The notes beneath the pieces are model-generated. The model was not told the origin of the DNA. It did no database searches and was given only the letters and a program-made list of their open reading frames with translations. The position numbers and the translations under genes were made by a program. DNA of 63,563 nucleotides, filler included, from Candidatus Fermentibacterota bacterium (GTDB taxonomy: Bacteria; JAFGKV01), in the NCBI GenBank assembly GCA_016928395.1. It is 5 parts of 5 records of this genome, joined end to end, with 100 filler letters (N's around TTAATTAATTAA, not from the genome) between each part and the next. Parts side by side here need not be neighbours in the genome. Positions count along the whole stretch, not along the records: positions 40,379 to 49,492 come from JAFGKV010000132.1; 4 more parts are not named here. One strand, written 5' to 3'. Of this stretch, positions 3,618 through 59,893 are shown piece after piece; the stretch's first letter is position 1; every line of letters starts with the position of its first letter.

Positions 3618-5372
3618 ATGGTTCTGCATGCTCTCTACGAACTCCACGACCGGTTGGTGTCGGATGCCGCATACGGCATTGCGCCAAGCGGGTTCAGTTA
3701 CCAACGAATATCCTTCGTGGTGGTAGTCAACCCAGACGGCGCGCTCCACGCCATCGAAGACGCGCGGATTCCGGCGGGCGAGCGGTTTCGGCCTCGGAGG
3801 GTCTTGGTCCCGGGAGGGGCCAAGAAGACCGGCTCGGGGCTGAATCCATGCTTCTTGTGGGACAACCCGGCATACCTCCTAGGCTACGCTCCGGACAAGC
3901 CTGAACGGGCGGTCCGGGCGTTTGAGGCGTTTCGCGATCGACATCTTGGCTTGGAGTCCGAGATCGGCCTATCGGACTACTCCGCAGTGTGCCGCTTCCT
4001 TGAACACTGGGACCCAGCTGAGGCGGTTGGGCATCCCATCCTCGCTGACGTGGGTCCGGGGTTTGGCGTGTTCCAAATTCGGGGCCATGCCGGTTTTGTT
4101 CACGATCAGGCCAGGATCAGGGAGTGGTGGGAGAGAGCCCTTGACATCGAGGGCAACCCCCCCGAAGGTCAGTGCATTGTCACTGGGGAGTTATCCCCTC
4201 TTGCCCGACTTCATCCTTCAATCAAGGGGGTGGCCGGTGCCAACTCTTCAGGTGCCTCCATGGTTAGCTTCAATGTCAACTCCTACGAATCCTACGGCAA
4301 GCATCAGAGCTTCAACGCTCCGGTCTCAACGCAGGCGGCGCAGCGCTACACCACCGCGCTCAACGTCCTTCTGGATGGCCCGCAACGGGACAAGCATCGG
4401 CTTGTGGTAGGCGACATCACGGTGGTCTTCTGGACCGACCGTCCCAGCGATACCGAGGACATCTTCCTACGATTTGCGTCGGAGGGCTCTGCGTCGTTGG
4501 TCAACGCGGAGTCACAAGATACAGTCTTGCGCGCCAAACTCGAGGCTTTCCTGCAGGCCTTGCGCAGGGGTCGGGATGCCTACGGAGAACTTGAGGAGTC
4601 GCCGGAGACCACTTCCTACTACATCCTCGGGCTCTCTCCAAACGCGGCAAGAATAGTGGTGCGCTTCTTCCACCAAGGAACCGTGTTTGAGCTACTGGAT
4701 AATCTCCGCCGCCATTTCTCCGCCATGGCCACCGAGCGACAGTGGGGGGACGACGCCAAACGCCCCGACCCGGAATTCCCGCCCGTATACGTGCTGTTGC
4801 GTCAAACGGCGCGAGAAGCCAAGGACATCCCCCCCGTTCTCGGCGCTCCTCTGCTCAAGGCCATCATTGTCGGGACCAGGTATCCCGCAGGTCTCTACCA
4901 GGCTGTCATGAGGCGGATCGCAGCTGACCGAACCATCAACTACCCGCGGGCTTGTGTGATCAAAGGCTACCTCGTGAGAAACCTTGGAAAGGAGGTCCCT
5001 GTGAGCTTGGACGGCTCCCGAGAGGATCCCGCGTATCGGCTTGGACGCCTGTTTGCGGTACTCGAGAAGACCCAGGCAGATGCGTTGGGAGGAGGCACCA
5101 ACGCGACGATTCGCGATCGCTTCTACAGTTCGGCCTCGGCCACTCCGGCCATCGTGTTTCCGCGGTTGTTGCGTACATACCAGCACCATCTTGCGAAGCT
5201 CGAGGGTGGACGCAAGGTGGTGCGCGAGAAGCTCGTGCAAGAGATCTTGGACCCGATCGAAGGCTTCCCAACTCACCTTGCTCTTCCAGAGCAAGGACTG
5301 TTCGCCCTCGGCTACTATCATCAGATGAATGACCTATTCCGCCCCAAAGAGACCGGAACCTCGGACACCTAG
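3618..5372 (+). CDS. cas8c: Type I-C large subunit Cas8c/Csd1
   Basis: FLWDNPAYLLG, ARLHPSIKGV, LGLSPNAARI, AYRLGRLFAVLEKTQ, QGLFALGYYHQ. Confidence 0.96.
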   Translation: MVLHALYELHDRLVSDAAYGIAPSGFSYQRISFVVVVNPDGALHAIEDARIPAGERFRPRRVLVPGGAKKTGSGLNPCFLWDNPAYLLGYAPDKPERAVRAFEAFRDRHLGLESEIGLSDYSAVCRFLEHWDPAEAVGHPILADVGPGFGVFQIRGHAGFVHDQARIREWWERALDIEGNPPEGQCIVTGELSPLARLHPSIKGVAGANSSGASMVSFNVNSYESYGKHQSFNAPVSTQAAQRYTTALNVLLDGPQRDKHRLVVGDITVVFWTDRPSDTEDIFLRFASEGSASLVNAESQDTVLRAKLEAFLQALRRGRDAYGELEESPETTSYYILGLSPNAARIVVRFFHQGTVFELLDNLRRHFSAMATERQWGDDAKRPDPEFPPVYVLLRQTAREAKDIPPVLGAPLLKAIIVGTRYPAGLYQAVMRRIAADRTINYPRACVIKGYLVRNLGKEVPVSLDGSREDPAYRLGRLFAVLEKTQADALGGGTNATIRDRFYSSASATPAIVFPRLLRTYQHHLAKLEGGRKVVREKLVQEILDPIEGFPTHLALPEQGLFALGYYHQMNDLFRPKETGTSDT

Positions 5373-5408
5373 TCACCTAGGCCACACACAGGTAGGGAGG
5401 AACACAGC

Positions 5409-6266
5409 GTGAAGCGCCACGATTTCGTCTACGTGTTTGATGTGAAGGATGGCAACCCGAACGGCGATCCTGACGCCGGCAACCTACCCCGAGTGGACCC
5501 AGAGACAGGGCACGGCCTTGTGACCGACGTGTGTCTCAAGCGGAAGCTCAGAAACTACGTAGCTTTGACCCGCGGCGACGCGAATGGGTACCGCATCTAT
5601 TTCTCCGAGGGGGCCGTACTGAATCGGCTGCACGAAGAGGCCTACGACAGCATCGGCGAGAAACCCGTGGCAAAGAAGCTCCCCAAGGACGTGGAGAAGG
5701 CCCGTAAACTGACGGAGTTCATGTGTCAGAACTTCTGGGACGTTCGTACCTTCGGGGCTGTGATGGCAACCGAGGTCAACTGCGGGCAGGTCCGCGGCCC
5801 CATCCAGATGTCCTTCGGTCGCTCCACGGGACCGATTGTGACGTTGGAGCACGCTATCACGCGCAGTTCGGTCACCAATGAGCGGGACTTGGAGAAGGAG
5901 CGAACCATGGGTCGCAAGTTCACCGTTCCGTACGCCGTCTACGTCGCCTACGGTTTCGTCAACCCGTTTCTGGCTCGAGAGACGGGGTTCTCCGAAGAAG
6001 ACTTGGCGCTACTGTGGGAATCCTTGACGAATGCCTTCCAGTTCGATCAATCGGCGGCGAGGCCGGCTGGCAGCATGGCCTGCCGACGGCTAATCGTATT
6101 CCGGCATCCCAACGAACTTGGTGCCGCACCCAGTCATGCTTTACTGGACGCTGTTTCTGTGCGGACAAGAGATGGCGCCGAAACGCCTCGCTCTTTCGAG
6201 AACTATGAGATTGACGTTGATACAGCCACGATACCGGAGGGGATTGAAGTACTCGAGATGCCGTGA
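5409..6266 (+). CDS. cas7: Type I-C Cas7/Csd2
   Basis: FDVKDGNPNGDPDAGNLPR, TDVCLKRKLRNYV, DVRTFGAVM, GQVRGPIQ, TMGRK. Confidence 0.97.
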   Translation: MKRHDFVYVFDVKDGNPNGDPDAGNLPRVDPETGHGLVTDVCLKRKLRNYVALTRGDANGYRIYFSEGAVLNRLHEEAYDSIGEKPVAKKLPKDVEKARKLTEFMCQNFWDVRTFGAVMATEVNCGQVRGPIQMSFGRSTGPIVTLEHAITRSSVTNERDLEKERTMGRKFTVPYAVYVAYGFVNPFLARETGFSEEDLALLWESLTNAFQFDQSAARPAGSMACRRLIVFRHPNELGAAPSHALLDAVSVRTRDGAETPRSFENYEIDVDTATIPEGIEVLEMP

Positions 6267-6985
6267 GATACGACGAAGAGGATCTACTGCCCTTGTCCGG
6301 GGTTCAGCACCTTGTCTTCTGCGAGCGACAAGCCGCTTTGATCCACGCAGAAGGAATGTGGGCTGATAACGCACTCACCGTGGAGGGCTCTCACCGTCAC
6401 AAGCGGGTGCACGATGATGCGCCCCGAAGAGAACGGCGAAGAGACCTCATGATCGTGCGAGGGCTCTCACTTTGTTCCTTTGAGTTGGGGCTCTCCGGGG
6501 TAGCCGATGTTGTTGAATTCCGACGTCTGGTCAGCTCGGAGCAGCCGGACGAGGGCCGTCTCCCCTTGGGTGTCCAATTGCTAGGCGTCAGCGGTCTATG
6601 GATTCCGTTCCCGGTGGAGTACAAGCGGGGCCGACCGAAACCCCATCGGGCAGACGAGGTTCAGCTCTGCGCGCAGGCCCTGTGTATGGAGGAGATGCTT
6701 GGGGCGCAGGTTGCTGATGGGGCCTTGTTCTACGGAAAGGAGCAGCGCCGAATGGGTGTGACATTCGCGCCCGAACTGCGTGCATTGACTCGGGAGGCGG
6801 CCAATCGGCTTCACGAGCTGATCCGGACAGGCGAGACCCCGGCTGCAGTCAAGGACAAGAAGTGCCGATCCTGCTCCCTAGCCAGTCGTTGCCTGCCTGA
6901 AGCCGCAAGTCGGCGAGGCTCCGTCAAGTCTTTTGTGGCCTCTGAGATCGACCGGATGCTGTGTCCTGAACGAGCTGACTCTTGA
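6263..6985 (+). CDS. cas4: Cas4 exonuclease
   Basis: QHLVFCERQ, GVADVVEF, PVEYKRG, QLCAQALC and C-terminal CxxCS..xC Fe-S ligands. Confidence 0.95.
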   Translation: MRYDEEDLLPLSGVQHLVFCERQAALIHAEGMWADNALTVEGSHRHKRVHDDAPRRERRRDLMIVRGLSLCSFELGLSGVADVVEFRRLVSSEQPDEGRLPLGVQLLGVSGLWIPFPVEYKRGRPKPHRADEVQLCAQALCMEEMLGAQVADGALFYGKEQRRMGVTFAPELRALTREAANRLHELIRTGETPAAVKDKKCRSCSLASRCLPEAASRRGSVKSFVASEIDRMLCPERADS

Positions 6986-8007
6986 AGAAGCACCTCAACA
7001 CCCTGTTTGTCACTACTCAAGGGGCGTGGCTCTCCAAGGAGGGCGAAGCAGTGGCCGTATCGGTCGAAAGAGAGGTCCGACTTCGGGTCCCCGTTCACCT
7101 CCTGGAAAGTATCGTTTGCTTTGGCAATGTCTCCATGAGTCCGTTCCTGATGGCCCATTGCGCTGAGGCCGGAGTGGGCATCTCGTTTCTGACGGAACAT
7201 GGAAAGTTCCTGGCTCGGGTGGAAGGTCCCGTGTCGGGCAATGTCCGTCTTCGCCGCACGCAGTACCGGTGGGCGGATGATCCTGAACTCAGCGCCGCTC
7301 TTGCACGGGCGTTCGTGGTGGGCAAGATCGCGAACAGTCGCATGGTCCTCCAGCGCGCAGCCCGAGACCACCCAGAGAGAAGAAAGGGTCTGACACCGGC
7401 GGTGGACGCTCTCGCCGGGAGTGTCAAACAAGTTCAGCAGGCCTGCTCCGTGGAGACGATTCGGGGGATCGAAGGGGAGGCGGCCCGAACCTACTTCGGT
7501 GTGTTCCGTGAGCTTGTCGTGGTGGGCGAGAGTGAGTTCCGCTTTGAGGGTCGCACGCGAAGGCCACCTCGGGACGAGGTCAATGCGCTGCTCTCGTTCA
7601 TCTACGTGCTTCTGCTTCACGATATACGTTCTGCGCTTGAGTCTGTGGGAATGGACCCACAGGTTGGCTTCCTGCATCGAGACCGGCCTGGGCGTCCCAG
7701 CCTCGGTCTCGACTTGATGGAGGAGCTTCGTCCTGTTCTGGCAGACCGACTTGCGCTCACGCTTATCAACCGACGACAGGTACGGGCGCGAGGATTCGAG
7801 CGCCAGGAGGCCGGTGGTGTCTTCATGAATGATGAGACCCGGCGCACGACGCTTCTCGCCTACCAAGAACGGAAGAAGGAGGAAGTGCTCCATCCTTTCC
7901 TGGGGGAGAAATGCACGATTGGTGCGGTTCCCCGCATTCAGGCTCTCCTGCTATCCAGGAGGCTAAGAGGGGATCTCGATGCCTACCCGCCCTTCTTCTG
8001 GCGCTAG
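6982..8007 (+). CDS. cas1: Type I-C Cas1 integrase
   Basis: MKKHLNTLFVTTQGAWL, RGIEGEAARTYF, NALLSF, GFLHRDRPGRPSLGLDLMEELR, YPPFFWR. Confidence 0.97.
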   Translation: MKKHLNTLFVTTQGAWLSKEGEAVAVSVEREVRLRVPVHLLESIVCFGNVSMSPFLMAHCAEAGVGISFLTEHGKFLARVEGPVSGNVRLRRTQYRWADDPELSAALARAFVVGKIANSRMVLQRAARDHPERRKGLTPAVDALAGSVKQVQQACSVETIRGIEGEAARTYFGVFRELVVVGESEFRFEGRTRRPPRDEVNALLSFIYVLLLHDIRSALESVGMDPQVGFLHRDRPGRPSLGLDLMEELRPVLADRLALTLINRRQVRARGFERQEAGGVFMNDETRRTTLLAYQERKKEEVLHPFLGEKCTIGAVPRIQALLLSRRLRGDLDAYPPFFWR

Positions 8008-8582: not shown

Positions 8583-8682
8583 NNNNNNNNNNNNNNNNNN
8601 NNNNNNNNNNNNNNNNNNNNNNNNNNTTAATTAATTAANNNNNNNNNNNNNNNNNNNNNNNNNNNNNNNNNNNNNNNNNNNN
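8583..8682. other. Artificial contig linker
   Basis: N run + TTAATTAATTAA (stops in six frames) + N run, 100 nt. Confidence 0.99.
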
Positions 8683-40278: not shown

Positions 40279-40378
40279 NNNNNNNNNNNNNNNNNNNNNN
40301 NNNNNNNNNNNNNNNNNNNNNNTTAATTAATTAANNNNNNNNNNNNNNNNNNNNNNNNNNNNNNNNNNNNNNNNNNNN
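40279..40378. other. Artificial contig linker
   Basis: N/TTAATTAATTAA/N, 100 nt. Confidence 0.99.
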
Positions 40379-40600
40379 GCAGTAGGCTGTCAGCTAACGG
40401 GGCCATCTCCTCACTCCTCACCCCCATGTCAGAGCGAAGCGAAGCCGCATTCTCTCGCCACGGTGTGCCTTCGACCTGCGGTGGGGAACGTCTCACGCAA
40501 AGCCGCGAAGCACGCCAAGGGAGCGGCATGATTCACCATGAAGGGCACGAAGAGTGACGGAAGAATGGGCTGGGGAGCCTCATTCTTCCGTCACAGGGTG
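40379..40600 (+). repeat. Repeat mosaic (GAGCGAAGCGAAGC core, GTGACG..CAC hairpin)
   Basis: Shares GTCAGCTAACGGG.CCATCTCCTCACTCCT..CACCCCCATGTCAGAGCGAAGCGAAGCC with ~58137-58210, and the hairpin with 47335 and 49599. Confidence 0.8.
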
Positions 40601-40634
40601 CCCTTCCCGGCCTATGAGCCGGGCCTGCCTTGGA

Positions 40635-42677
40635 CTATCGCAGCACCATCACAGGTCGCACGCTTCGATCAGATCCGGAGACCAGTCGGCAGAAGTAAAC
40701 TCCGGAGGGGATCGATGAGGCGTCCCAGGATACGGTGTGATACCCGGCGGGAAGCGTCTTGTCGACCAAGGTCGTGATCTCCCTGCCTAGCGCATCCATC
40801 ACCACCAGGCGTACATGTCCCATGGTCGGAATACCATAGGAGAACATCGTCTCGGTGCCAAAGGGATTCGGGCTGTTTGGCAGCAGCACGCATGCCACCG
40901 GCAACGCCACATCCGGGTGACCATACGAGATCTCGGGCGTGTCGGTCGGGATGAGGCCGACATCGAGAATGTCGCCCTCGTTGATGGCCTCCGCGACATC
41001 CTTGGCCAGCTCATCGTTGGCCGTCTCGTCATCGGTGATGAGCTGCCAGCAGTACGTGATGGCCTGCGAAGCCGTGGCGCCGTCGTAGCTCACTGATGCG
41101 AACTGCGGCAGCTGCAGCGAGGTCACATTCAGCAGCAATGCCATCATCTGTCGCTTGGCCTTCTGCACCATCGGCACATTGCCGTCTGTATTGAGCAGAT
41201 CATATGCTGCCTGCAGGCTGTCCACGTGGTCCGCAGGCTGGTTGACCACGTAGACCCCCAACGGGTTCGCAGGGCTGTTGGTGAAGTGCATCGAGATGTC
41301 ACTCAAGTAGCCCGTGAAGTCAGCCTCGTCGATCTGCGCGGCGCCTCGTCCGGTGAGATAGACCTTGAGCTGATGCTTCCAGAAGCCCACCGAACGAGGA
41401 TCATATGCCAGGTCCATCGGGGTGAGGAAGAAGTCACACACAATATCCTCGCCTGCGATGGTCACGCCCTTCGATTCCGCATCGGCGACGTAGCCCAGAG
41501 GAGTGATGATGGAGACGGTGTAGTCGCCCCATGGCAGTTCAGAGAACGAATAGGCCCCAGACGCATCAGACTCTGTCATCCCGAGCTCTACACCTAACGC
41601 ATCGTGAAGCTCAACAGGAACCCCAGCGCGACCACCGGCAGAGCTCTTCACCGAGCCGGCAATCCTGCAGAACTGGGGAAGATCTTGATACCTCAGGATC
41701 TTGAATCCCGTGTTGTCAGCCACGTAGACAAGTTTATCCAAGACACAGAGATTCCTCATGTTCGTCCCGGGATTGTAGCGCGTGAGGTATTCACAATTCT
41801 GTGGATCAGAGATATCCACCACCCAGAGGCCACCGTAGTAATCACTCACATAGGCGATTTCATCCTCGACTTCGACGGAGACCGTTAAGTCCATTCCGGG
41901 TGGATTGAAGGAGCCGACTAACGACGGTGTTGCCGGGGCACTTACATCGAATATCACCAAACCTTCGGTCTTATCAGTCACATATGCGTGTGTGTCAACA
42001 ACCTCGACATCATACGCCACGAAACCTGTCGTGATGGTGGAGATGGTGGAAAGAGCAGAGGGGTTCGTGGCATCGACTATCCGAAGTCCCGCGTACCAGT
42101 CGCCGACGAAGACAAGACCATCTCGAGTGGCCACCCAGTGTGCGTTGTTCGTCGAGAGGCTGCCTACCTGAACGGGGTTTGAGGGGTCAGTCACATCAAT
42201 CGCTCGGAGCCCTCCGAACCCACTTCCGACGAAGGCTATCGTACCATCGACCACCACTCCCCTTGCCTCGTGAGGAGTGGGGATGTGACCCTCGAGCTTC
42301 AGGTCGGCAGGATCGGAGATGTCGAAAATCCACATGCCACCGGTATCATGGTGAAAACCATCAGTGACGAAGGCGAGGGTACCCTCGATGTCGATTTGGC
42401 TGGCCGCGAATGAAGGATCACTCCACCCATCGAGGAATACCGGATTGCTGGGATCTGACACATCATAGGCAAGAAGACCAGCCGCCTTTGCTCCCACGAA
42501 GGCGTAGGGGAATGCAACCTCCACAGCCATGGCGCCATCGGCCAGGAAGGCTTCGCCAAGAAGGACTAGCTCCGGAAGCACATCTCCTGTGGAGACCGAG
42601 GGGACTATGGTCGTGAGGAAGATCAGGACTACCGCAAGCACAGTTAGAAATCGTGGTCTATTCAGTGGCTCTCTCAT
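40635..42677 (-). CDS. Secreted LVIVD-repeat protein with Ig-like domain and FlgD/T9SS-type C-terminal domain
   Basis: Signal peptide; about eight G-L-x-I-x-D-V/I-S-D-P repeats; IAGSV..TESDASGAYSF; PNSPNPF..YGIP..GHVRLVV..GREI..SGVYFCRL; GGAG RBS. Confidence 0.88.
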   Translation of the reverse strand: MREPLNRPRFLTVLAVVLIFLTTIVPSVSTGDVLPELVLLGEAFLADGAMAVEVAFPYAFVGAKAAGLLAYDVSDPSNPVFLDGWSDPSFAASQIDIEGTLAFVTDGFHHDTGGMWIFDISDPADLKLEGHIPTPHEARGVVVDGTIAFVGSGFGGLRAIDVTDPSNPVQVGSLSTNNAHWVATRDGLVFVGDWYAGLRIVDATNPSALSTISTITTGFVAYDVEVVDTHAYVTDKTEGLVIFDVSAPATPSLVGSFNPPGMDLTVSVEVEDEIAYVSDYYGGLWVVDISDPQNCEYLTRYNPGTNMRNLCVLDKLVYVADNTGFKILRYQDLPQFCRIAGSVKSSAGGRAGVPVELHDALGVELGMTESDASGAYSFSELPWGDYTVSIITPLGYVADAESKGVTIAGEDIVCDFFLTPMDLAYDPRSVGFWKHQLKVYLTGRGAAQIDEADFTGYLSDISMHFTNSPANPLGVYVVNQPADHVDSLQAAYDLLNTDGNVPMVQKAKRQMMALLLNVTSLQLPQFASVSYDGATASQAITYCWQLITDDETANDELAKDVAEAINEGDILDVGLIPTDTPEISYGHPDVALPVACVLLPNSPNPFGTETMFSYGIPTMGHVRLVVMDALGREITTLVDKTLPAGYHTVSWDASSIPSGVYFCRLVSGSDRSVRPVMVLR

Positions 42678-43121
42678 TTGTCTTTCTCCATGTTGAGGGT
42701 GTTGCCTAATGGGAATAGCGAGGATCGACGCCCCGCTCCGCGGTGGGGAGCGGTTCCGTGTGGACAGTCGGCGGCACCCGAGGCGCATGTGATTCCTCCC
42801 TTCACTCATTAGGCCACCGTTGATGCACGGGAATTGGTTCGTGCAGTGGACCGTCGCGCGGCAAGGGCCTGCGCAACAGTGAGTCATCGTGTTTGATATC
42901 TCAAACGATCGGCAGGGGTCCATTGCTTATTCGAGATAGAAATGCGGTTGATACTGGGCCGCAGTTCGGGGAGTCCGGACCTGTTCGCAGAGAGGTGTTG
43001 TGTCGGGGCGATTGGCCAGACTCATGGATCTATCCACACTCTGGGCATCCACAGGAGTGGACACGGCGGCAGGCGAACCACCCCACTGAGGACATGTAAG
43101 CGATGGCCTTCGGGGGTTCTA

Positions 43122-45446
43122 CTATCTGTGGCTTTGCCGCCTAAGGTGCTTCGATCCATGGAGCACTTGGATGCGTCGCATCGAACGGTCGAAGGCTTCG
43201 GAGCGTGCATCCCACGTTATCACGTTGTTTCGCCTTGCCTTCTCGGACCAGACCTTGAAGGCATCGCACGCGTAGAAGTCGACCACATTGAGATCGGTAT
43301 CCAAGAAGTATCGGAAGACTGGCTCAGGCATTTTCCAGCCGGGTAGCCGCGCTGATATTTGAACAGAGAGAATAATCACGCCATTATGGTGCTCGACTCG
43401 AGCGTTGGTAGCATCGAGACGACTCATGCCGAGAGCTTCAGGGAGGCCGATCGGAGTGGGAAAGATGATGTAGTCCTGGTAGCCCGTAGCAGCATCGTCA
43501 GTCTCGTACATTGGACCTCGACCGCAGCCTCCTCTCGGATCGAGGACCACGACAACAGGTGAACGGCAAGGAACATTGGTACCCGTACAGATGAATTCCT
43601 CGTACCCATCCTGGTCTATGTCATACACCGCTGACTTCTCGGTACCGTTGCAAAAAAACGCCGACCCATGATGTCCAGGATTCCAGAAGCTGTGAAGGTG
43701 TTCCCCACTGGAGGATAGCACGGCAGTCTGACACACGCCCGTTGGTCGGTGATAACAGCTCACAGCGAGCCAATGATCTTGACAGGTTGGCCCTCGGAGG
43801 AGCACCACGCCACTGATCCCGAAATTGTCGGCGACATCCCACGGCAAGGGGCACTCGAGGTTATTCCCCGCCCTAAAACGCCAGAGTTCATTGCCGCGAG
43901 AGTCGAGGCAGAACAGCGTTCCGGGGACTGAATCTTCGACCGCGGTTCCATAGACTATCTCGGAACCTGCCAGCCCATCCACATCTATCAGTTTGCTGAA
44001 TCGGTTTGTGGTGTGGACGACTGGAAAACGCCGGATGCAGCGTCCCTTGCTATTGGAAAGCAGCATGTGCTGATGGTCCGGAGCCAGCCGCACTTCAGCT
44101 GGACGGGAATCCAGCCACCAAGCCAAGCGTGGAATGCTCCATGCAGCGGCAACCAACACGATGGCACACGCAAAGACTGTCATCAGCCTCCTCCCAGGTC
44201 GACCCTGACTCACGACAGCCATCAGACGCGTCGCGGGTCCACGCTTCTTGATCGTGACAAGGTGGTGCGAGCCGAGTGCATCTCGAATACTCCGCAAGGG
44301 ATAGCACTGCGTTTCGACACGAGACGACGCGAGCAGTCCACGGACAGCGGTTGACATCTCTTCATGCACTTCCGCAGGATAGGCGATCCCCCGTAGTCGC
44401 GAGGCAGCAACCCGTTCGACCTTCTCTCGGAGGCTGCCGACCGGCCGGATCTGTCCCTCCTCGTCCAAGTCACCCGTCCAGGCAATCTGCTGGCTGGGAC
44501 ACATCTGATGAGGAAGATTCAGTTGTTCCCCGAGAGCATTGGCTGCCACAAGCGCGACGGGAAGAAGGATCGATCTACCTTGGATTTCGGCTACCGCTTC
44601 CAGTCGCCCAAGGGTGAATGTGAATTCCAAGTGAGATCGGGCTCCCTCCTCGCCCGCCGAGGGACCGAGGAGGAGCAAGACATGCTCGACCGCGCGCCGG
44701 ATTGCAGCGTCCAAAGCATTAGGGATGCTTCCCCCTTGCGCGTTTCTGATCTGAATCATGATGGATGGCGTCTTGCGAGCCTTGCTCACCTTGAGATATG
44801 CCGACAGCTGAGTCAGATAGCCCTCGCGGTATCGAGCAGGTACGTCTGGCGTGTCCACGAGCACCGTCAGAAGTACGCCAACCGGAACATCATCCGGTCT
44901 CATCAGGTGATACGGCCACACCAACCGATCGTACCCGCCTTGATCCGATTGCCTCGAGTCAATCTCTCGGAGAGCGTCGAGTGTTCCGTCGAGATCATGC
45001 TCCGGGATGGGCACATCCGGGACCAGCCTACTCATGATCCCTTTTGCAGCAGACCAATCTGCACGGATGACGTGCTCAGCAGCCTGAAGGACACGCAATC
45101 TCCCAAGTGCACAGGACAACGTTGTGATACTCCGGCCAGCATCAGTGGATAGATGAGTCTCGATTGTCTGTAGAACATCTGCGAGGAACCCGAGATGCCC
45201 GGAAATCGGAACTGGTCCAAGAGTGAGGTCGCACAGACGAGTCAGCGTATCAACGTGGTAGAACAACACGGATGGCAACTCAGCGAGAGGCGGAAGGGAC
45301 TTCAGATGATCGAGGAGCCGCACTGCGGCTTGCTTCCTTGTGAGAACAGGCAGAGTGATGAGCAGTTCGCTGTGGCGACCGTCGATCAGCGGAAGAGAGT
45401 GCCCCCGGTCGTTAGCCATCACTGCTATTGTGTCAGGAAGCCACAC
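43122..45446 (-). CDS. Single-pass membrane protein: N-terminal helical region + Lon/S16-type protease domain + TM + FG-GAP-like C-terminal domain
   Basis: IQGRSILLPVALVAA..IAWTGDLDEEGQIRPVGSLREKVE..LRGIAYP matches Lon_C (putative S292/K342); hydrophobic residues ~421-445; IDVDG..EIVYGT and YDIDQDGYEEFI repeats. Confidence 0.78.
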   Translation of the reverse strand: MWLPDTIAVMANDRGHSLPLIDGRHSELLITLPVLTRKQAAVRLLDHLKSLPPLAELPSVLFYHVDTLTRLCDLTLGPVPISGHLGFLADVLQTIETHLSTDAGRSITTLSCALGRLRVLQAAEHVIRADWSAAKGIMSRLVPDVPIPEHDLDGTLDALREIDSRQSDQGGYDRLVWPYHLMRPDDVPVGVLLTVLVDTPDVPARYREGYLTQLSAYLKVSKARKTPSIMIQIRNAQGGSIPNALDAAIRRAVEHVLLLLGPSAGEEGARSHLEFTFTLGRLEAVAEIQGRSILLPVALVAANALGEQLNLPHQMCPSQQIAWTGDLDEEGQIRPVGSLREKVERVAASRLRGIAYPAEVHEEMSTAVRGLLASSRVETQCYPLRSIRDALGSHHLVTIKKRGPATRLMAVVSQGRPGRRLMTVFACAIVLVAAAWSIPRLAWWLDSRPAEVRLAPDHQHMLLSNSKGRCIRRFPVVHTTNRFSKLIDVDGLAGSEIVYGTAVEDSVPGTLFCLDSRGNELWRFRAGNNLECPLPWDVADNFGISGVVLLRGPTCQDHWLAVSCYHRPTGVCQTAVLSSSGEHLHSFWNPGHHGSAFFCNGTEKSAVYDIDQDGYEEFICTGTNVPCRSPVVVVLDPRGGCGRGPMYETDDAATGYQDYIIFPTPIGLPEALGMSRLDATNARVEHHNGVIILSVQISARLPGWKMPEPVFRYFLDTDLNVVDFYACDAFKVWSEKARRNNVITWDARSEAFDRSMRRIQVLHGSKHLRRQSHR

Positions 45447-46353
45447 CTACGACGTATGCAGTCAAGGAGAATTCACGCGCTTCAGTGTCCTCATCTGACA
45501 CCCATCCGATCCCTCCCGCGTCAACAGAGATAAGCTCTTCACGCGAGCCATGAGAAACATAGGCGCGCAAGCTGCACTTGGGATGTCTCGTAGTCATGTC
45601 GCTGAGATCGAGTCTATAGCGTCTTCCAGCGGCAGTTTCGATCAGCGAGACGATGAGTTTGTATCCCTGGCGAGAGGTGATGGTCACTGCCCCTTCTGCG
45701 ACCAGCGAATCATGGAGAGCACGAGGTTGGAGGTGGAAATGTGCATCACCGTGGAAGAGGACCACGGACGTATCCGCGGGGGACAAGGCGGGCGCATCTT
45801 CGACGATTAGGCAGCCCTTCACGTCGGGCCTGCCCTCGTAGTAGAACCCCACTTTCGGATTCGAGATCACCAAAATGCTCTCGCCCAGCCATGGCACGTC
45901 CTCTCCAATGAGGTACAGCCGCACCTGGCCAGACCAGGCTTGCCGAAGCGAGCGCAGCAGAATCGATCCATCTTCGGAGACGAAAGCATCGATGTCGCCC
46001 TCGCCACCAGTGTCTGCTGCCAAAGCGCGTGGCGCTGTGATTGGCGTCATCGGTTGATGTCGGGGGTAGAACCTGACGACATTAGAGGCAGAAGGAGATA
46101 CGCGTCGCGCCAGCACCCGTTGCCATAGATCCGGTCGGTCTTCCACCTCCGCACTTTTGCGATGCGCAACTCGCACACAATCGACGAGGATGTCACAGCA
46201 GTACTGGCACTCCGAGAAGTGCCCCTCAAGCACGGACCGGAGTTCATCCGAAATCGCTCCCGAGAGGTATGAGGCGAGCAGCATTTCGTCGGGGCACGAG
46301 ATCGGCGGATTCTCAAGCATTGCAGCGCTCCATATGAGTTCGCGTCTTGGCAT
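45433..46353 (-). CDS. Soluble zinc-finger (zf-HC2/ZAS) anti-sigma factor-like protein
   Basis: CPDEMLLASYLSG.IS..LRS.LEGHFSECQYC (HxxxCxxC); no hydrophobic TM; directly downstream of the ECF sigma gene. Confidence 0.82.
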   Translation of the reverse strand: MPRRELIWSAAMLENPPISCPDEMLLASYLSGAISDELRSVLEGHFSECQYCCDILVDCVRVAHRKSAEVEDRPDLWQRVLARRVSPSASNVVRFYPRHQPMTPITAPRALAADTGGEGDIDAFVSEDGSILLRSLRQAWSGQVRLYLIGEDVPWLGESILVISNPKVGFYYEGRPDVKGCLIVEDAPALSPADTSVVLFHGDAHFHLQPRALHDSLVAEGAVTITSRQGYKLIVSLIETAAGRRYRLDLSDMTTRHPKCSLRAYVSHGSREELISVDAGGIGWVSDEDTEAREFSLTAYVVGVAS

Positions 46354-46397
46354 TCACAAGACTCAGCCCTCGTTCAATGCCGCAAGCATGCGACCGC

Positions 46398-47036
46398 TTA
46401 CTCCAGGGCATTTCCGGGGCCCTCGCATGAACAACGGCTAAGGCTCTCGTTTTGCTGGAGAGCACTGCGCATTTTCACCTTGGCCTGTGCTATCGAGGAC
46501 GATACCGCTCCGATTGTGACTCGCGCCAACTCTGCGATTTCGCGATACTTCAGACCGCCAAAGTAGAATAGCCGCACGTAGTAGCGTTCCCTTTCGGAGA
46601 GGCAGCCGAGAGCCGCATTGAGGGATTCCTCCGTGCAGATGGCCTCCAGAGGATCCAGTTCCATGTGTCCTTCAGAGGAAGCGGCCAGGCCTGGCGCACC
46701 CCGTATGTAGGGCGACGCGTCACCAATCGGGATGACAAAACGATCATGTCTGAGGTGATCGCGATAGAGGTTTCTGGCGATGATGAGGAGCCACCATCGG
46801 AATTGGTGATCCGAGGCAAAAGCGGCATCCCTGATTCGTTGGCCGTTCTTGGCCATCAACCGGCAGAAGAGCTCGATGAGAATGTCATCCGCAGTGTCGG
46901 GGTCAGCGCCTGATTGCCGAAGAAAACCCGTGATCGTTCCAGAGTGCTCAACAAAAAGCCTGTGCCACGCTTCTACATCGCCCTCGATGCACCTCTGGAG
47001 TATTGAGAGAATCGGGTTTCCTCGTTGTTCGCTCAA
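46398..47036 (-). CDS. ECF-type RNA polymerase sigma factor
   Basis: GDVEAW..LF, ADDILIELF, FRWWLLIIARNLYRDHLR (region 2); LSERER..L.Y..GLKYREIAE..IGAVSSSI..AK.KMR (region 4). Confidence 0.92.
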   Translation of the reverse strand: MSEQRGNPILSILQRCIEGDVEAWHRLFVEHSGTITGFLRQSGADPDTADDILIELFCRLMAKNGQRIRDAAFASDHQFRWWLLIIARNLYRDHLRHDRFVIPIGDASPYIRGAPGLAASSEGHMELDPLEAICTEESLNAALGCLSERERYYVRLFYFGGLKYREIAELARVTIGAVSSSIAQAKVKMRSALQQNESLSRCSCEGPGNALE

Positions 47037-47261
47037 GGGCCAATCCTATGCACGTTGGCAAAATGTAAGCTTGCTATGGCTGAACGGGGCGTATCGGGAG
47101 CGTGACGGCGGTAATCTTTCGAGCTCCAGAGACGAGTTGACTCCACGAGCATCGTCTTCCCCCATGGGACGCGGCAGTGGCCGCGACGTAAGAACCACGC
47201 GGTGGTGTGTGCGGAAGTGTAGCGCGCGGGGGGCGGGAATGCAAGCGCGGTGGGGAAGCAG

Positions 47262-47420
47262 GGTTCACCACCAAGACACGAAGGACACCAAGGAAGCAAG
47301 AACTTCACCATGAAGAACATGAAGGGCATGAAGAGTGACGAGAGAATGAAACGATGTCCTGCATTCTCTCGCCACAGGTGTGCCTTGCCCTGCGGGGCGG
47401 GGGACCAGTCGGCAGTAGGG
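47262..47420 (+). repeat. Repeat mosaic (ACACGAAGG/CATGAAG nonamers, hairpin, GGCAGT tail)
   Basis: GAGTGACGAGAGAATG..CCTGCATTCTCTCGCCAC..GCCTTGCCCTGCGGGGCGGGG..CAGTCGGCAGTAGG also occurs at ~49597-49680. Confidence 0.82.
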
Positions 47421-47485
47421 ACAATGGAGGGTCAGACATCGCACTATTGCATTCTCCGGGACCAGAGGGAAGACAGCCTGCAAGG

Positions 47486-47704
47486 TCAATCGACCTTCTC
47501 GCCACACTGCCGCCCCTCGGCGTCATACTCGCCCGTGGATTCGCGGACTTTGCGGGTGGGCGGCATCTCCTCCACCACCTTCCCATCACGCCAGATGACA
47601 AGGGGTCTGCCTCGGCGACGATGTTCTTCTATCACCCCGTCCACGGCCGCACGCATTGCGGCCATCGCCTTCTCAGTCAGTGTGTCTTCCTTCTTGTGCG
47701 TCAT
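47486..47704 (-). CDS. Small protein coupled to the zeta-like ATPase (putative antitoxin/partner)
   Basis: ATGA overlap with the upstream gene, GGAGG RBS, sequence AV..VIEEHRRRGRPLVIWRDGKVV. Confidence 0.7.
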   Translation of the reverse strand: MTHKKEDTLTEKAMAAMRAAVDGVIEEHRRRGRPLVIWRDGKVVEEMPPTRKVRESTGEYDAEGRQCGEKVD

Positions 47705-48282
47705 CGGTGTCCTCCGGCTGTCGCGATGATCCTATCATAGAGACGTCGATCGATAATCGTCACCTCACCTTGTTCCTCGTGAAAGACCATTCTTGGCTCA
47801 GCCGTAGAATTGTCAAAGAAATGCAGGGAATCAAGTTCTTTGCGATAGACACAGAACAGGTTTCTGAGGCTGCGGCTGTAACGCCTCCGTACGTCCGTTT
47901 CCGGCACATCGTGGCCACCCTGGTCGACCCGGTCCCTGATTCGCGCCACCGCCATCTCAGCACTGGGTATCCAGAGATAGAACATGTGTGCCCGATACCC
48001 CGTCACACGAATGGACCGGATGAGGTTGAGATGCGTGCGGCCCGAGAGCGTCGTCTCGAACGCAAAATCATCCCGGCGCCGGACGGATTCCGCAATCTCC
48101 TCAAGAACGAGGCGCCCTGCCTTCACTATCGCCCTGCTTGGGTCGAAAGGAGATAGCCCACCTGCGATGAGATCAGGATTGATGAAATTCAGGCAATGCG
48201 CGTACCTGGGCAGAAATTCCCGCGCGAACGTAGTCTTGCCGGCTCCGTTCGACCCTGCGACGATATGGCACTCAAGCACCAC
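47701..48282 (-). CDS. Zeta-toxin-like / AAA_33 P-loop protein
   Basis: IVAGSNGAGKTTFAREFLP, FINPDLIAGGLSP, FAFETTLSG, RIRDRVDQGGHDVPE..VRRRY, FFDNS. Confidence 0.88.
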   Translation of the reverse strand: MVLECHIVAGSNGAGKTTFAREFLPRYAHCLNFINPDLIAGGLSPFDPSRAIVKAGRLVLEEIAESVRRRDDFAFETTLSGRTHLNLIRSIRVTGYRAHMFYLWIPSAEMAVARIRDRVDQGGHDVPETDVRRRYSRSLRNLFCVYRKELDSLHFFDNSTAEPRMVFHEEQGEVTIIDRRLYDRIIATAGGHR

Positions 48283-48486
48283 TCACCACCCGAGGAAGCA
48301 GGGTTTGAGCACCTTGGGGACGTACATGAAATCAGTACTTTCCGCCCTCGCCGCGGCCAACGGCCGCCTCGCCGACCACAAGTGCAGCGTACTCGGATGT
48401 CCATGCCGTATCGACTTCTCCCTCGCACTCGCCGCATTGATCGCATCCAACGGCAACGCCACCTCAATGAGCTTCCTGTGGTTCAC
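48283..48486 (-). pseudogene. N-terminal fragment of a DUF1156 (DNA methylase-associated) gene
   Basis: [45 protein letters not shown]; similarity stops after about 48 aa; AGGAG RBS. Confidence 0.8.
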
Positions 48487-48699
48487 TCTGTCTCCTGGGT
48501 TTGGCATGCGGCATACCCGATCCATTCTCGGGCATCGGCCGGTTGGGCCCGGCTCTCTAATGCCACGCGAGAAGCGGATCGCTTGTGGATCATCTGACGC
48601 AGGCTGAGGCATATCAGACGATTGCCGGACGATTCCGGCGTGCGTGGTGATGAGCCGCATCGATGGATTAGACCAAGTCGTCGATGGATTGTCGATGGA

Positions 48700-48834
48700 T
48701 TACGCATGGTTACCTGCAGAAACGTACCTGGTGCTTCGACCGCTTCCAACCGGCTCAATCAAACCTAAGTCTACCAAACCTTGAAGGTCTCGGTACGCAG
48801 TGTTGTGGTCAACGAGTAGGGTCAAGTATTGCAT
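48700..48834 (-). pseudogene. C-terminal winged-HTH remnant of a Fic/AlbA-type gene
   Basis: Manual translation MQYLTLLVDHNTAYRDLQGLVDLGLIEPVGSGRSTRYVSAGNHA* (below the ORF-track cut-off). Confidence 0.6.
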
Positions 48835-49181
48835 TGTGGGATTTGGATGGGCGGATTGAGCAGCACGAATCGCCGCGCCTGCAGGCGCGTGCCTTGTATG
48901 GAGAAGCCAATGTGGAGCGGAATCCGGTCGAGTCCATCGCTGCCCCAGGGTGAAGGCTCTCTATCGAGTAAGGAAATAGGAGTAAGGAGTGAGGAGATGA
49001 AGAGGTCAAGGGGTGAAGAGGTGAAGGGGGAAAGAGGGCCGGAGTGAACCCTGAACCCTTGACCTTGGCAGAGAGCTGATAGCTGAGAGCTGCCGCGCAG
49101 CGGCAACCGTGCCCACTCCAGGGCGCAGATTCTCGTTAGACAACTTCGGAACCGGCGCCGGGGATTCCCCGTAGCTCGACA

Positions 49182-49277
49182 TTTCACCAACGTGCCTAAA
49201 CCGCTTCAACCCTACACCACAACCGTGGCTTCATGCGGTCTTCTCTTCTACTCGTGGAACTAGGGACGTTGGTAAAA
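49182..49277. repeat. 96-bp imperfect inverted repeat, attC-like ends
   Basis: TTTCACCAACGTGCCTA...TAGGGACGTTGGTAAAA, 15 of 17 positions complementary. Confidence 0.45.
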
Positions 49278-49310
49278 TGGTAAGTTACCGATCGAGTATG
49301 GCCCCCGAAG

Positions 49311-49338
49311 CCCACTATTCTAAGGTTAGAATAGTGGG
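49311..49338. promoter_or_regulatory. Perfect palindrome with 13-bp arms (operator-like)
   Basis: CCCACTATTCTAA-GG-TTAGAATAGTGGG. Confidence 0.55.
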
Positions 49339-49405
49339 TAAATACGGCCCGGCGGGCCATGGAAGGGCATGGGATGTGGGATGAGAGTGCGGGCATGCTT
49401 CCCCC

Positions 49406-49492
49406 TGGGAATGCGGAGCAACCCCACGCGACGGCACTACGCCGTCACCACAGCAGGGCAAACGGTATGGCGGGAGGAGGGGGAAGTCAAGA
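49406..49492 (-). repeat. 87-bp repeat at contig end carrying a sigma70-like promoter
   Basis: Identical to 59707-59793; minus strand reads TTGACT-N17-TACCGT. Confidence 0.85.
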
Positions 49493-49592
49493 NNNNNNNN
49501 NNNNNNNNNNNNNNNNNNNNNNNNNNNNNNNNNNNNTTAATTAATTAANNNNNNNNNNNNNNNNNNNNNNNNNNNNNNNNNNNNNNNNNNNN
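49493..49592. other. Artificial contig linker
   Basis: N/TTAATTAATTAA/N, 100 nt. Confidence 0.99.
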
Positions 49593-49851: not shown

Positions 49852-51246
49852 CTATGATGCCACCTCCCAATGTCCGCCCTTGTCTGATCCCACGCGACGG
49901 AGCAAACCATTGGCCTGCAACCTCTTAATGTGGTACTTGACACCACTATCGGATATACCCAGCTCCATTGCCAGTTCCCGGCGGGTGCTACGTGGGTTCA
50001 GGCGGATCAAAGCCACGATCTTCTGGGCAGTTTTCTGGGCAGTTTTCTGGGCAGTTCCTGCCCCGGGTCTTGGCCCATTCTCATCACTACCGGGGGTTCC
50101 GCCCTTCATGGCGAACTCGGGAGAACGGTGGAAGATCGCCCGGAAGAACCCGTCCGGCTCGAAGACCGGCTCCCTGAGTCCTGCCGCCATCATTGCCTCC
50201 TTCATCCTCCGAATCCCCATGCCGATGCGTTCAACTTTGTGCAGACGGAAGAAGAGGTCCGCGATCAGCTCGTTCCTTCGGATCGACACCGTGCCGAGAT
50301 CCCGCACGGACAGACCCTTTGGGAGGCCACCCGGGTTCACGATCTCAACCCTGTCGTCATAGACCTCCACACTCACCTGGGTGCCGGCGATGCTATAGTC
50401 TCGATGCATAAGGGCGTTGACCACAGCCTCGCGCAACACCTCTAGCGGGATCTCGTAGATGTCCTCGCGATTTACCCCCTTGATGACGCTTCGGACATTC
50501 AAGTGCTTCCTGAGAAACGCCACCGCCTCATTGAACTGGGTGAGCAAATCGCCCCGTACATCACGCCGATCATAGATGTGAAGCCGCTCTGTTCCCTTGA
50601 ACGCAAGAAGGGTTGCCTGGGCCTGATGCAGATGGCCGTACACATCTTTGGCGAAGAAGAGGATGCCCGCGTTCTTGACCCGTGTTTCATCTGCCACTCT
50701 GAGGCTGCGCAAGAAGTCGGGCACGGCGATAGAACCGATGCGGATGCCCGCTTCCTTGGTGAACGCACGAATCCTCGACACCGAGATGCCGTCGAAGGAG
50801 AAATCCCGGACCGTTCTTTCCTCGAAAGGCAACGGCTCATTCTCAGCGAACATGATCCTCAGTTCGTCGTGACTCATCTTCTGTGTCGTGGCGTCGAGCC
50901 TCCGGTAATACCCGGACCTACAGGAGTATGGTTTCTCTCCACCCTCCGGCACGACAATGGCCACGACCTTGTCGACCTGCAGAAGCTCCACAGCGATCGC
51001 CGGCTTGCAGTTCCGCGAAAGGCTGTTGATCTTGGCCTTCAAGTCATTCGAAAGGTGCTCACCTACGATGGACCCGTCCTCGCGCACGCCCAGGAGTAGG
51101 GACCCGCCCTTAGCGTTGGCGAAGGCCACAAGATCCTCATCTATTCGGGGAGAATAGCGTTCTTTGAACTCAACGGTGAGTCCTTCGCCCTCGAGGAGCA
51201 GAAGCCGCACCTGATCGCAAGCTGCGGCGGGATCGGTGGGAGGCAT
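49852..51246 (-). CDS. AlbA_2 (Schlafen-like) + HATPase_c_4 + wHTH protein
   Basis: EGEGLTVEFK..LVAFANAKGG..LGV; LREAVVNALMHRDY; DRVEIVNPGGL; ERIGMGI; C-terminal RRVGSDKGGHWEV. Confidence 0.9.
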   Translation of the reverse strand: MPPTDPAAACDQVRLLLLEGEGLTVEFKERYSPRIDEDLVAFANAKGGSLLLGVREDGSIVGEHLSNDLKAKINSLSRNCKPAIAVELLQVDKVVAIVVPEGGEKPYSCRSGYYRRLDATTQKMSHDELRIMFAENEPLPFEERTVRDFSFDGISVSRIRAFTKEAGIRIGSIAVPDFLRSLRVADETRVKNAGILFFAKDVYGHLHQAQATLLAFKGTERLHIYDRRDVRGDLLTQFNEAVAFLRKHLNVRSVIKGVNREDIYEIPLEVLREAVVNALMHRDYSIAGTQVSVEVYDDRVEIVNPGGLPKGLSVRDLGTVSIRRNELIADLFFRLHKVERIGMGIRRMKEAMMAAGLREPVFEPDGFFRAIFHRSPEFAMKGGTPGSDENGPRPGAGTAQKTAQKTAQKIVALIRLNPRSTRRELAMELGISDSGVKYHIKRLQANGLLRRVGSDKGGHWEVAS

Positions 51247-59793: not shown

Positions 59794-59893
59794 NNNNNNN
59801 NNNNNNNNNNNNNNNNNNNNNNNNNNNNNNNNNNNNNTTAATTAATTAANNNNNNNNNNNNNNNNNNNNNNNNNNNNNNNNNNNNNNNNNNNN
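59794..59893. other. Artificial contig linker
   Basis: N/TTAATTAATTAA/N, 100 nt. Confidence 0.99.

Follow-up and report, generated by a model that had tools for sequence, protein, structure and literature searches.

We analysed a stretch of 63,563 nucleotides from a Candidatus Fermentibacterota bacterium (JAFGKV01, assembly GCA_016928395.1), called the window here, in which five parts of the genome are joined end to end. One part, window 40379-49492 (9,114 nt), holds an operon for a sigma factor, a soluble anti-sigma and a membrane-anchored Lon-like protease, and physical linkage holds only within this part. All genes and protein features of the window described below lie on its minus strand. 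Our subject is a short motif in the anti-sigma, ALAAD, which may be the place where the neighbouring protease cuts. An original prediction, made from the sequence alone, held that cleavage after the last alanine of this motif would leave a sigma-binding fragment ending in ALAA for ClpXP to destroy. We examined this proposal by homologue searches, alignments and structure modelling.

The sigma factor is of the extracytoplasmic function (ECF) type and has 212 aa (46398..47036). It matches Sigma70_r4_2 (E 3.1e-09) and Sigma70_r2 (9.2e-05), and TIGR02937, sigma70-ECF, above its cut-off (1.3e-17); a hydropathy scan found no transmembrane segment in it. The anti-sigma gene lies 44 nt downstream and encodes 306 aa (45433..46353), or 295 aa when counted from the alternative start M12 at 46320 (P0001). 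The protease follows, with 774 aa when read from a GTG at 45446 (43122..45446). Packing is tight: the start of the protease gene overlaps the anti-sigma stop at 45433 or comes very close to it.

The anti-sigma carries a zinc motif, H45-x3-C49-x2-C52 (46198..46221), which is invariant in 15 of 15 aligned sequences. This HxxxCxxC near the N-terminus is what marks the zinc-binding class of anti-sigmas (ZAS, class I; zf-HC2, PF13490), and the co-oriented, adjacent ECF sigma gene expected for that class is also present in the window. Family models recognise the protein poorly. No Pfam family matched at E up to 0.1, and the sole profile match, NCBIfam 'antisigma' over residues 25-94, is weak (E 0.0045; 17 bits, with a cut-off of 100). 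Its homologue P0016 scores 20.5 bits against zf-HC2, whose cut-off is 22.2, and another homologue, P0017, has PF13490 as a precomputed assignment.

Conservation and setting of the LAA motif

Translation of window 46003-46035 gives APRALAADTGG. Numbered from the ATG at 46353, ALAAD is A110-D114 (46012-46026), exactly where the original prediction had read it within PRALAADTGG; with the gene caller's start M12 (P0001, 295 aa) it becomes residues 99-103, a shift of 11. The proposed scissile bond would be A113|D114. The conserved core is L111-A112-A113 (46015-46023), which reads LAA in 13 of 15 sequences, IAA in one and LIA in one.

These counts come from a full HMMER search of 1.84 billion representatives, which gave 32 matches at E <=1e-3, the window anti-sigma itself included. 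We aligned 14 of the 31 non-self matches together with P0036 (alignments A2 and A5) and removed P0035, a fragment lacking the zinc domain, before counting. The resulting set of 15 is the window protein plus 14 homologues that have the zinc motif and sequence beyond it, at 20-37% identity. The sequences with LAA at the homologous position are the window protein, P0005-P0012, P0016, P0017, P0022 and P0023. We then shuffled the 90 residues that begin 10 residues past each zinc motif; LAA is expected in 1.57 of 15 sequences, compared with the 13 observed, a comparison that ignores the kinship of the homologues, which inflates counts, and so serves as an illustration and not as a probability. The Ala-poor proteins P0016, P0009 and P0007 hold LAA despite a shuffle chance of 1.5-3% each, and P0016 keeps it in a stretch with 4% Ala.

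Column conservation gives the same picture. In a 12-row alignment of 343 columns, seven are invariant: M1, H45, C49, C52, A112, A113 and G180; L111 is nearly so. The three LAA columns of the 15-row alignment A5 count 12, 15 and 12 of 15, with MAFFT offsetting three rows by one column. In the loop columns that flank LAA, the commonest residue reaches only 2-6 of 15, and because this surrounding loop varies, conservation of LAA goes beyond what descent alone would leave. Judged from the alignments, LAA is the sole near-invariant feature besides the zinc ligands and one Gly. The two alanines are followed by D, A, T, K, E or R, and the position ahead of the leucine varies too. Conservation that ends right after the second Ala would fit a determinant read from a new C-terminus. 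An isolated, conserved LAA was what the original prediction proposed to look for in homologues, and the alignment agrees with it.

The other 17 of the 31 non-self matches were left unaligned, and four of them continue a little beyond the zinc domain. One, P0020, is a fragment of 124 aa with VVPFEPR and then LAA nine residues on. The other three are anti-sigmas of different kinds: P0014 combines a double zinc domain with an unrelated tail, and P0018 and P0021 seem to be membrane-bound. For most of the remaining 13, the best matching stretch spans the zinc-domain region alone. The family is rare, in clusters of 1-9 members, with source names Candidatus Eisenbacteria, Candidatus Zixiibacteriota and 'bacterium'. 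A word-index search with the anti-sigma returned only itself, and one with profile A2 added only P0017 and P0036.

We modelled the anti-sigma with AlphaFold2 from the 12-row alignment; the mean predicted local distance difference test (pLDDT) was 77 and the predicted template modelling score (pTM) 0.59. The model places a four-helix anti-sigma domain at residues 23-83 (46105..46287; helices 23-31, 36-48, 50-66 and 74-83). A conserved segment, VVRFYPR, follows at residues 92-98 (46060..46080) and forms a strand at 92-97. Its consensus is V-I-x-L-x-P-R, the commonest residue reaches 11 of 14 in column 93, 13 of 14 in column 95, 11 of 14 in column 97 and 10 of 14 in column 98, and residues 91-100 have a mean pLDDT of 83. 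LAA lies in the next segment, a loop at residues 101-118 (46000..46053) with pLDDT <50 and no secondary structure. A beta-rich C-terminal region then occupies residues 121-303 (45445..45993) as two beta-sandwich-like parts; it holds the invariant G180, and its pLDDT is 77-91 per 10-residue block. Foldseek matched the model only to generic Ig and beta-sandwich folds (template modelling score by query <=0.19).

According to this model, LAA is exposed and flexible, lies outside the four-helix domain, and is not buried; burial in a folded domain was what the original prediction had named as fatal to it. The Pro-rich linker between zinc domain and beta-rich region that it described is right in substance; in the model the helices end at 83, the conserved strand 92-97 intervenes, the coil spans 101-118 and the strands start at 121. 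A Kyte-Doolittle scan found no hydrophobic segment anywhere in the anti-sigma. Lacking any such segment, the protein is ruled out as a substrate of signal peptidase at an A-x-A site, and likewise as a substrate of a site-2 protease or a rhomboid.

The Lon-like protease and its predicted contact with the anti-sigma

The product of the next gene is a Lon-like (S16) protease. Its homologues P0003 and P0004 share 35-36% identity with it over 97% of its length, and one of the two is named from a Candidatus Fermentibacteria metagenome-assembled genome. A third relative (E 3e-16) is encoded in a metagenome locus, L002. The public gene call for the window protease, P0002 (637 aa), begins about 137 residues too late and omits a conserved N-terminus: residues 14-137, with an invariant LFYHVDT, are conserved among the homologues. 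From these comparisons, the likely start of the protease is the ATG at 45419 (M10), 13 nt past the anti-sigma stop.

We modelled residues 1-420 with AlphaFold2 from a four-row alignment (mean pLDDT 68). The model has a helical N-domain, with helices between 24 and 170, and a Lon fold at 189-400. The N-terminal helical domain proper, residues 18-108 (45123..45395), contains LFYHVDT at 61-67 and is the predicted docking site for the anti-sigma. Neither Pfam nor NCBIfam found an AAA family in the protein, and no AAA+ module lies ahead of the Lon domain, residues 24-170 being modelled as helical. The Lon proteolytic domain (189-400; 44247..44882) superimposes with VIA-align on the catalytic domain of E. 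coli Lon (1rr9) at Z 16.8, with a root-mean-square deviation of 3.1 A over 178 of 182 residues. Similarity to Lon and to stand-alone Lon-like domains runs at Z 14-17, and Foldseek matched the model to 3wu3 at E 1.9e-07. A profile of the N-half matched Lon proteolytic domains in the PDB, among them A. fulgidus Lon (6.5e-4) and TTC1975 (8.8e-4); an Atlas search with the N-half gave leads all below 0.9.

In the profile alignment, the G-x-S of the family falls on the G-D-S of A. fulgidus Lon and the family Lys on its Q-K-I-E. We take the aligned Ser and Lys of the matched PDB entries to be their catalytic residues. The corresponding residues of the window protease are Ser292 (44571-44573) and Lys342 (44421-44423), and G290, S292, T324, G325, D328, G331 and K342 are invariant in four of four proteases at 21-36% identity. 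Judged by these alignments, the protease keeps an intact Ser292/Lys342 dyad.

A single transmembrane helix is found at about residues 420-445 (44112..44189; highest Kyte-Doolittle value over 19 residues 2.18, at residue 421), in the same position in all four proteases; P0004 has a second, marginal one (1.65) at 272-290. The 20 residues before the helix hold four K/R and no D/E, and the 20 after it hold two K/R and three D/E. By the positive-inside rule, the positively charged side of a transmembrane helix faces the cytoplasm. This rule and the distribution of charges assign the Lon domain to the cytoplasm and the C-terminal part to the exterior. Enzyme and substrate would therefore be on the same side of the membrane, since the Lon side is cytoplasmic and neither the anti-sigma nor the sigma factor has a transmembrane segment. 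The part beyond the helix, about residues 460-774 (43122..44069), is a presumably extracytoplasmic region like an FG-GAP/VCBS beta-propeller. P0003 has PF01839 and PF13517, P0004 goes by the name of VCBS repeat protein, FG-GAP_3 matches the L002 homologue at 7.1e-08, and the protease profile matches designed propeller proteins.

To see how the two proteins might meet, we predicted the complex of protease residues 1-420 (four-row alignment) with anti-sigma residues 88-306 (12-row alignment) in three runs, with three controls. The median ipSAE was 0.64 (runs 0.31, 0.64 and 0.66), whereas the best control reached 0.00, and partner pLDDT was at least 72. In a benchmark of this kind of prediction, 58 of 80 solved complexes and 2 of 110 mismatched pairs scored at or above the mark, figures that are a rough guide here because we used custom alignments. 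In the best run, protease residues 18-108, with the invariant LFYHVDT, contact anti-sigma residues 100-101, 122-153 and 178-181, the last including the invariant G180. The modelling supports binding of the anti-sigma beta domain, by a predicted docking surface at residues 122-181, to the cytoplasmic part of the protease, in an uncertain geometry.

Two further claims of the original prediction concern this pair. That the neighbouring gene encodes a protease is borne out by the Lon fold and the aligned Ser-Lys dyad. That the C-terminal region of the anti-sigma docks on the protease is supported in the model, at 0.64 versus 0.00. All the refuting conditions accessible to computation turned out in favour of the original prediction.

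Some homologues of the anti-sigma are much shorter. P0009, P0011 (on a 15.7 kb contig), P0022 and P0023, at just 198-218 aa, stop once the first beta-sandwich is complete. Since they retain the zinc domain and the LAA loop, along with the predicted docking region for the protease, the second beta-sandwich seems dispensable.

Gene order and neighbouring genes

Downstream of the protease, the window encodes a secreted beta-propeller protein with LVIVD repeats and a type IX secretion system (T9SS) sorting tail (40635..42923; LVIVD 7.7e-34; Por_Secre_tail 0.0017, below its cut-off). The first 82 or so residues of this open reading frame (ORF) look over-extended, and a signal-peptide-like start follows at MREPLNRPRF. 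A target, a partner or a source of ligand for the module are all possible roles for this protein.

L002, a low-GC metagenome contig distant from the window, has a similar order. It runs from a 350-aa protein through the anti-sigma P0016, with YLLAADD, and the 775-aa Lon/transmembrane/FG-GAP homologue to a Reg_prop/PKD protein with a T9SS tail (5136-7514, plus strand; Por_Secre_tail 4.4e-09). The order anti-sigma, Lon/transmembrane/FG-GAP protein and T9SS-tailed propeller thus recurs in two loci. The genes after the protease belong to different families, LVIVD-type in the window versus Reg_prop/PKD-type in L002, and match in architecture and position. The 350-aa protein of L002 has no Pfam or NCBIfam match. 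An Atlas search placed it with unnamed clusters from Calditrichota, Ignavibacteriota and Bacteroidota at 0.96-0.97, with weak Sigma70_r2/r4 leads at 0.84, and it may be an unrecognised sigma-like partner.

We searched for further loci in several ways. The protease profile run against genome contigs found one locus (L001), broken off by a contig end; the genome it belongs to, G001, gave zinc-domain matches only and no full-length family member. Among 301 genomes of the phylum of G001, the N-half of the protease found no family member; in seven genomes the same search matched Lon domains within open reading frames some 800 aa long, presumably canonical Lon proteases. A first metagenome scan, with the protease profile, gave no match. 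A second, with profile A3, gave 14 loci, with a full-length relative in L002 only; L015 encodes a different, 763-aa TPR anti-sigma, and the other 12 match the zinc domain only.

Several other features of the window lie outside the module. Just upstream of the sigma gene is an ORF for a Zeta_toxin/AAA_33-like ATPase (47701-48282; E 6.9e-08), and a 72-aa ORF (47486-47704) overlaps its end by 4 nt; the two may form a toxin-antitoxin-like pair. A Schlafen AlbA_2/HATPase_c_4/winged-helix protein (49852-51246; E 4.3e-23) belongs to a different part, outside the contig of the operon. The blocks of N at window 8583-8682, 40279-40378, 49493-49592 and 59794-59893 each consist of two 44-N runs, 12 bases apart. 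Between the second and the third block lie 9,114 nt, a length identical to that recorded for the contig of P0001 and P0002.

The proposed route to sigma release

In our judgement it is an evenly poised question whether ALAAD is a regulated cleavage site of this soluble zinc-type anti-sigma, which yields an ALAA degron that frees the sigma factor. In the mechanism we propose, the four-helix N-terminal domain of the anti-sigma would hold the ECF sigma encoded just upstream, and the beta-rich C-terminal region would dock on the N-terminal helical domain of the protease. A signal from outside, sensed at the FG-GAP-like domain, would activate the Lon domain, perhaps by gathering protease molecules, each of which could then cut a substrate bound to its neighbour, in the manner of CalpL filaments. 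The protease would then cut the flexible loop after L111-A112-A113. The sigma-bound fragment ending in ...ALAA-COOH would carry a C-degron of the ClpX type, comparable to the ssrA tag and to the cleaved forms of RseA (VAA) and CalpT (LAA). Unfolding and degradation of this fragment would set the sigma factor free.

The model for such a route is the CalpL/T/S system, which is associated with type III CRISPR and consists of a SAVED-Lon protease, an anti-sigma and an ECF-like sigma. According to a preprint on it (10.1101/2024.05.08.593097), CCaCalpL cleaves CalpT within LAAA, at the bond from A204 to A205, and the LAA end left by the cut functions as a C-degron; an A204D mutation abolishes the effect. 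In E. coli, degradation of the CalpT fragment is put down to 'cellular proteases', and the case for ClpXP is made by analogy. The original prediction had taken it as established that CalpL cleavage of CalpT exposes a ClpXP degron; the LAA cut and the C-degron are indeed real, but in the preprint ClpXP comes in only by analogy. In CalpL, the C-terminal fragment of the substrate sits on the N-domain, far from the active site of the same molecule, and trans cleavage in a filament is proposed. The same source describes cleaved RseA, whose sigma-bound cytoplasmic fragment ends in VAA and is destroyed by ClpXP, and names the terminal AA of the ssrA tag (...YALAA) as the part that matters for ClpX (10.1101/2024.05.08.593097).

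The window module resembles CalpL/T/S in combining a sigma factor, a soluble anti-sigma and a Lon-type Ser-Lys protease with an N-terminal domain before Lon. In both, an N-part of the substrate that binds sigma precedes a loosely structured stretch with LAA and a C-part that docks on the protease N-domain; for the window module this layout is predicted. The modules differ in their sensors: the window protease has a transmembrane helix and an outside FG-GAP-like domain instead of a SAVED domain that senses cyclic tetraadenylate (cA4). They also differ in the anti-sigma, a zinc HxxxCxxC four-helix domain with beta-sandwiches here versus MazF-like and DUF2080 domains in CalpT. Neither Pfam nor PADLOC found SAVED in the window protease, and Pfam found no MazF or DUF2080 domain in the anti-sigma. 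There are no cas genes among the scanned ORFs of the 9.1-kb contig (sigma, anti-sigma, protease, LVIVD protein and zeta-like ATPase). No specific sequence similarity to CalpL/T/S emerged. Chains of CalpL or CalpT are absent from the matches listed by Foldseek, VIA-align and the PDB profile search, though a likeness may exist all the same. Given the lack of SAVED, of MazF/DUF2080 and of cas genes among these ORFs, and weak PADLOC matches only, the module is not a member of CalpL/T/S and stands outside the Calp family.

RseA is a membrane protein that two enzymes cleave, a site-1 protease in the periplasm and a site-2 protease within the membrane. The RseA/sigma-E pathway (DegS, RseP, ClpXP) shares with our proposal an anti-sigma fragment whose new end is a small hydrophobic residue followed by Ala-Ala, VAA in RseA and, as proposed, LAA here. 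In contrast to RseA, the window anti-sigma has no membrane segment; the protease itself spans the membrane, with its catalytic domain in the cytoplasm. The proposed new C-terminus, ...RALAA, has its last four residues, ALAA, in common with the ssrA tag. The tag, however, is added co-translationally, whereas ALAA is internal here and would need endoproteolysis to become a C-terminus. As for the enzyme, Lon (MEROPS S16) proteases and stand-alone Lon-like domains (LonB, TTC1975, BrxL, RadA, ComM C-domains) have the same fold and an aligned Ser-Lys dyad. Unlike Lon S16, the window protease has a helical N-domain and no AAA+ module, and a transmembrane helix and propeller-like domain come after its protease domain.

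Other explanations of the motif have to be weighed against a cut that makes a degron. An ALAA that arose by chance and does nothing, in a gene rich in Ala and GC, is extremely improbable. A single sequence has a likelihood of about 9% of holding LAA in the stretch, and the window is 61% GC, but 13 of 15 sequences hold it where 1.57 are expected, stretches of only 4-7% Ala among them, and A112 and A113 are among only 7 invariant columns of 343. The LAA counts, the shuffles and the invariant columns effectively refute chance. LAA might instead be a short binding motif that is never cut: a pseudo-substrate or inhibitor in the active site, or a segment that folds onto sigma or the protease N-domain, with release by some means other than proteolysis. 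Short conserved motifs within disordered loops frequently gain order when they bind, this loop has no confident placement in the complex model, and strand 92-97 next to it is both conserved and modelled well. We think this improbable all the same, since four of four proteases at 21-36% identity keep the Ser-Lys dyad and the Lon signature residues, which argues for catalysis, and three small conserved residues with variable flanks are a thin basis for an interface.

A stronger competitor, though on balance still unlikely, keeps the cut and gives up ClpX. On this view the Lon-like protease would recognise or cut LAA, which would be no ClpX degron; the cut alone, or another protease, perhaps the Lon-like enzyme itself, would free sigma, or the bond would lie at least one residue from A113|D114. 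A conserved, exposed motif beside an intact Lon-fold protease fits this equally, and a protease with P-side specificity alone would also yield one-sided conservation. The CalpT work points the same way insofar as it reports only degradation by 'cellular proteases', with ClpXP by analogy. On the other hand, L-A-A with an invariant last Ala is exactly an ssrA-type end. The LAA|A degron of CalpT was moreover demonstrated with A204D and a GFP reporter, and cleavage of CalpT by itself did not free sigma in vitro (10.1101/2024.05.08.593097).

A number of observations weigh against release of sigma through an LAA cut and a ClpX degron. Two of the 15 sequences depart from LAA, P0034 with IAA and P0036 with LIA. 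Strand 92-97 is modelled confidently beside the beta region, and if it packs on that region, the two fragments could remain together after the cut. The complex prediction leaves the geometry uncertain, as its runs agree on at least 3% of contacts and the run at 0.31 falls below the mark of 0.32; the LAA loop is outside the confidently placed interface residues. Gene context comes from only two loci, the window and L002, and in L002 the upstream 350-aa gene (708-1760, plus strand) is not recognisable as a sigma factor. The PADLOC matches to CRISPR-Lon and CARF-Lon are weak (E 0.0057 to 0.04, CRISPR-Lon at 0.04), and the protease profile matches canonical Lon domains, with no CalpL chain among the matches listed. 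No transfer-messenger RNA (tmRNA) was found in the window. We infer the cleavage itself and the bond at which it falls, the action of the new end as a degron, the part played by ClpXP, and the signal that activates the protease.

With rather more doubt than confidence, we propose that the module is an undescribed transmembrane route, in which an FG-GAP propeller on a single-pass protein activates the Lon domain of that same protein, and one LAA cut exposes an ssrA-like ClpXP degron. At the same tentative level, it would be a non-CRISPR, transmembrane counterpart of CalpL/T/S, may be tied to the adjacent T9SS-secreted propeller, and appears confined to candidate phyla of the FCB group, going by the names Fermentibacteria, Eisenbacteria and Zixibacteria.

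ECF sigma factors are usually released by regulated intramembrane proteolysis of a membrane anti-sigma, by partner switching, or by a direct change in the anti-sigma, for example a redox change. Apart from the Calp papers, full-text literature searches brought up no account of a module like this one. The 2021 ECF reclassification (PMC7826278) lacks 'Lon' as a whole word in its main text, and its supplements might list such a neighbourhood. Such a module would switch on a bacterial stress sigma factor in a manner not described before. If our proposal is true, the membrane-spanning sensor is itself the protease and the anti-sigma is soluble, and one conserved tripeptide ties the cut to the general degradation machinery. 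The prediction is at the level of single residues and easily tested. An internal LAA in a disordered loop, encoded beside a Lon-like gene, would become a searchable signature for other protease-gated regulators. The logic of CalpL, to dock a substrate, make a single LAA cut and expose a degron, would then reach from CRISPR immunity to ordinary envelope signalling.

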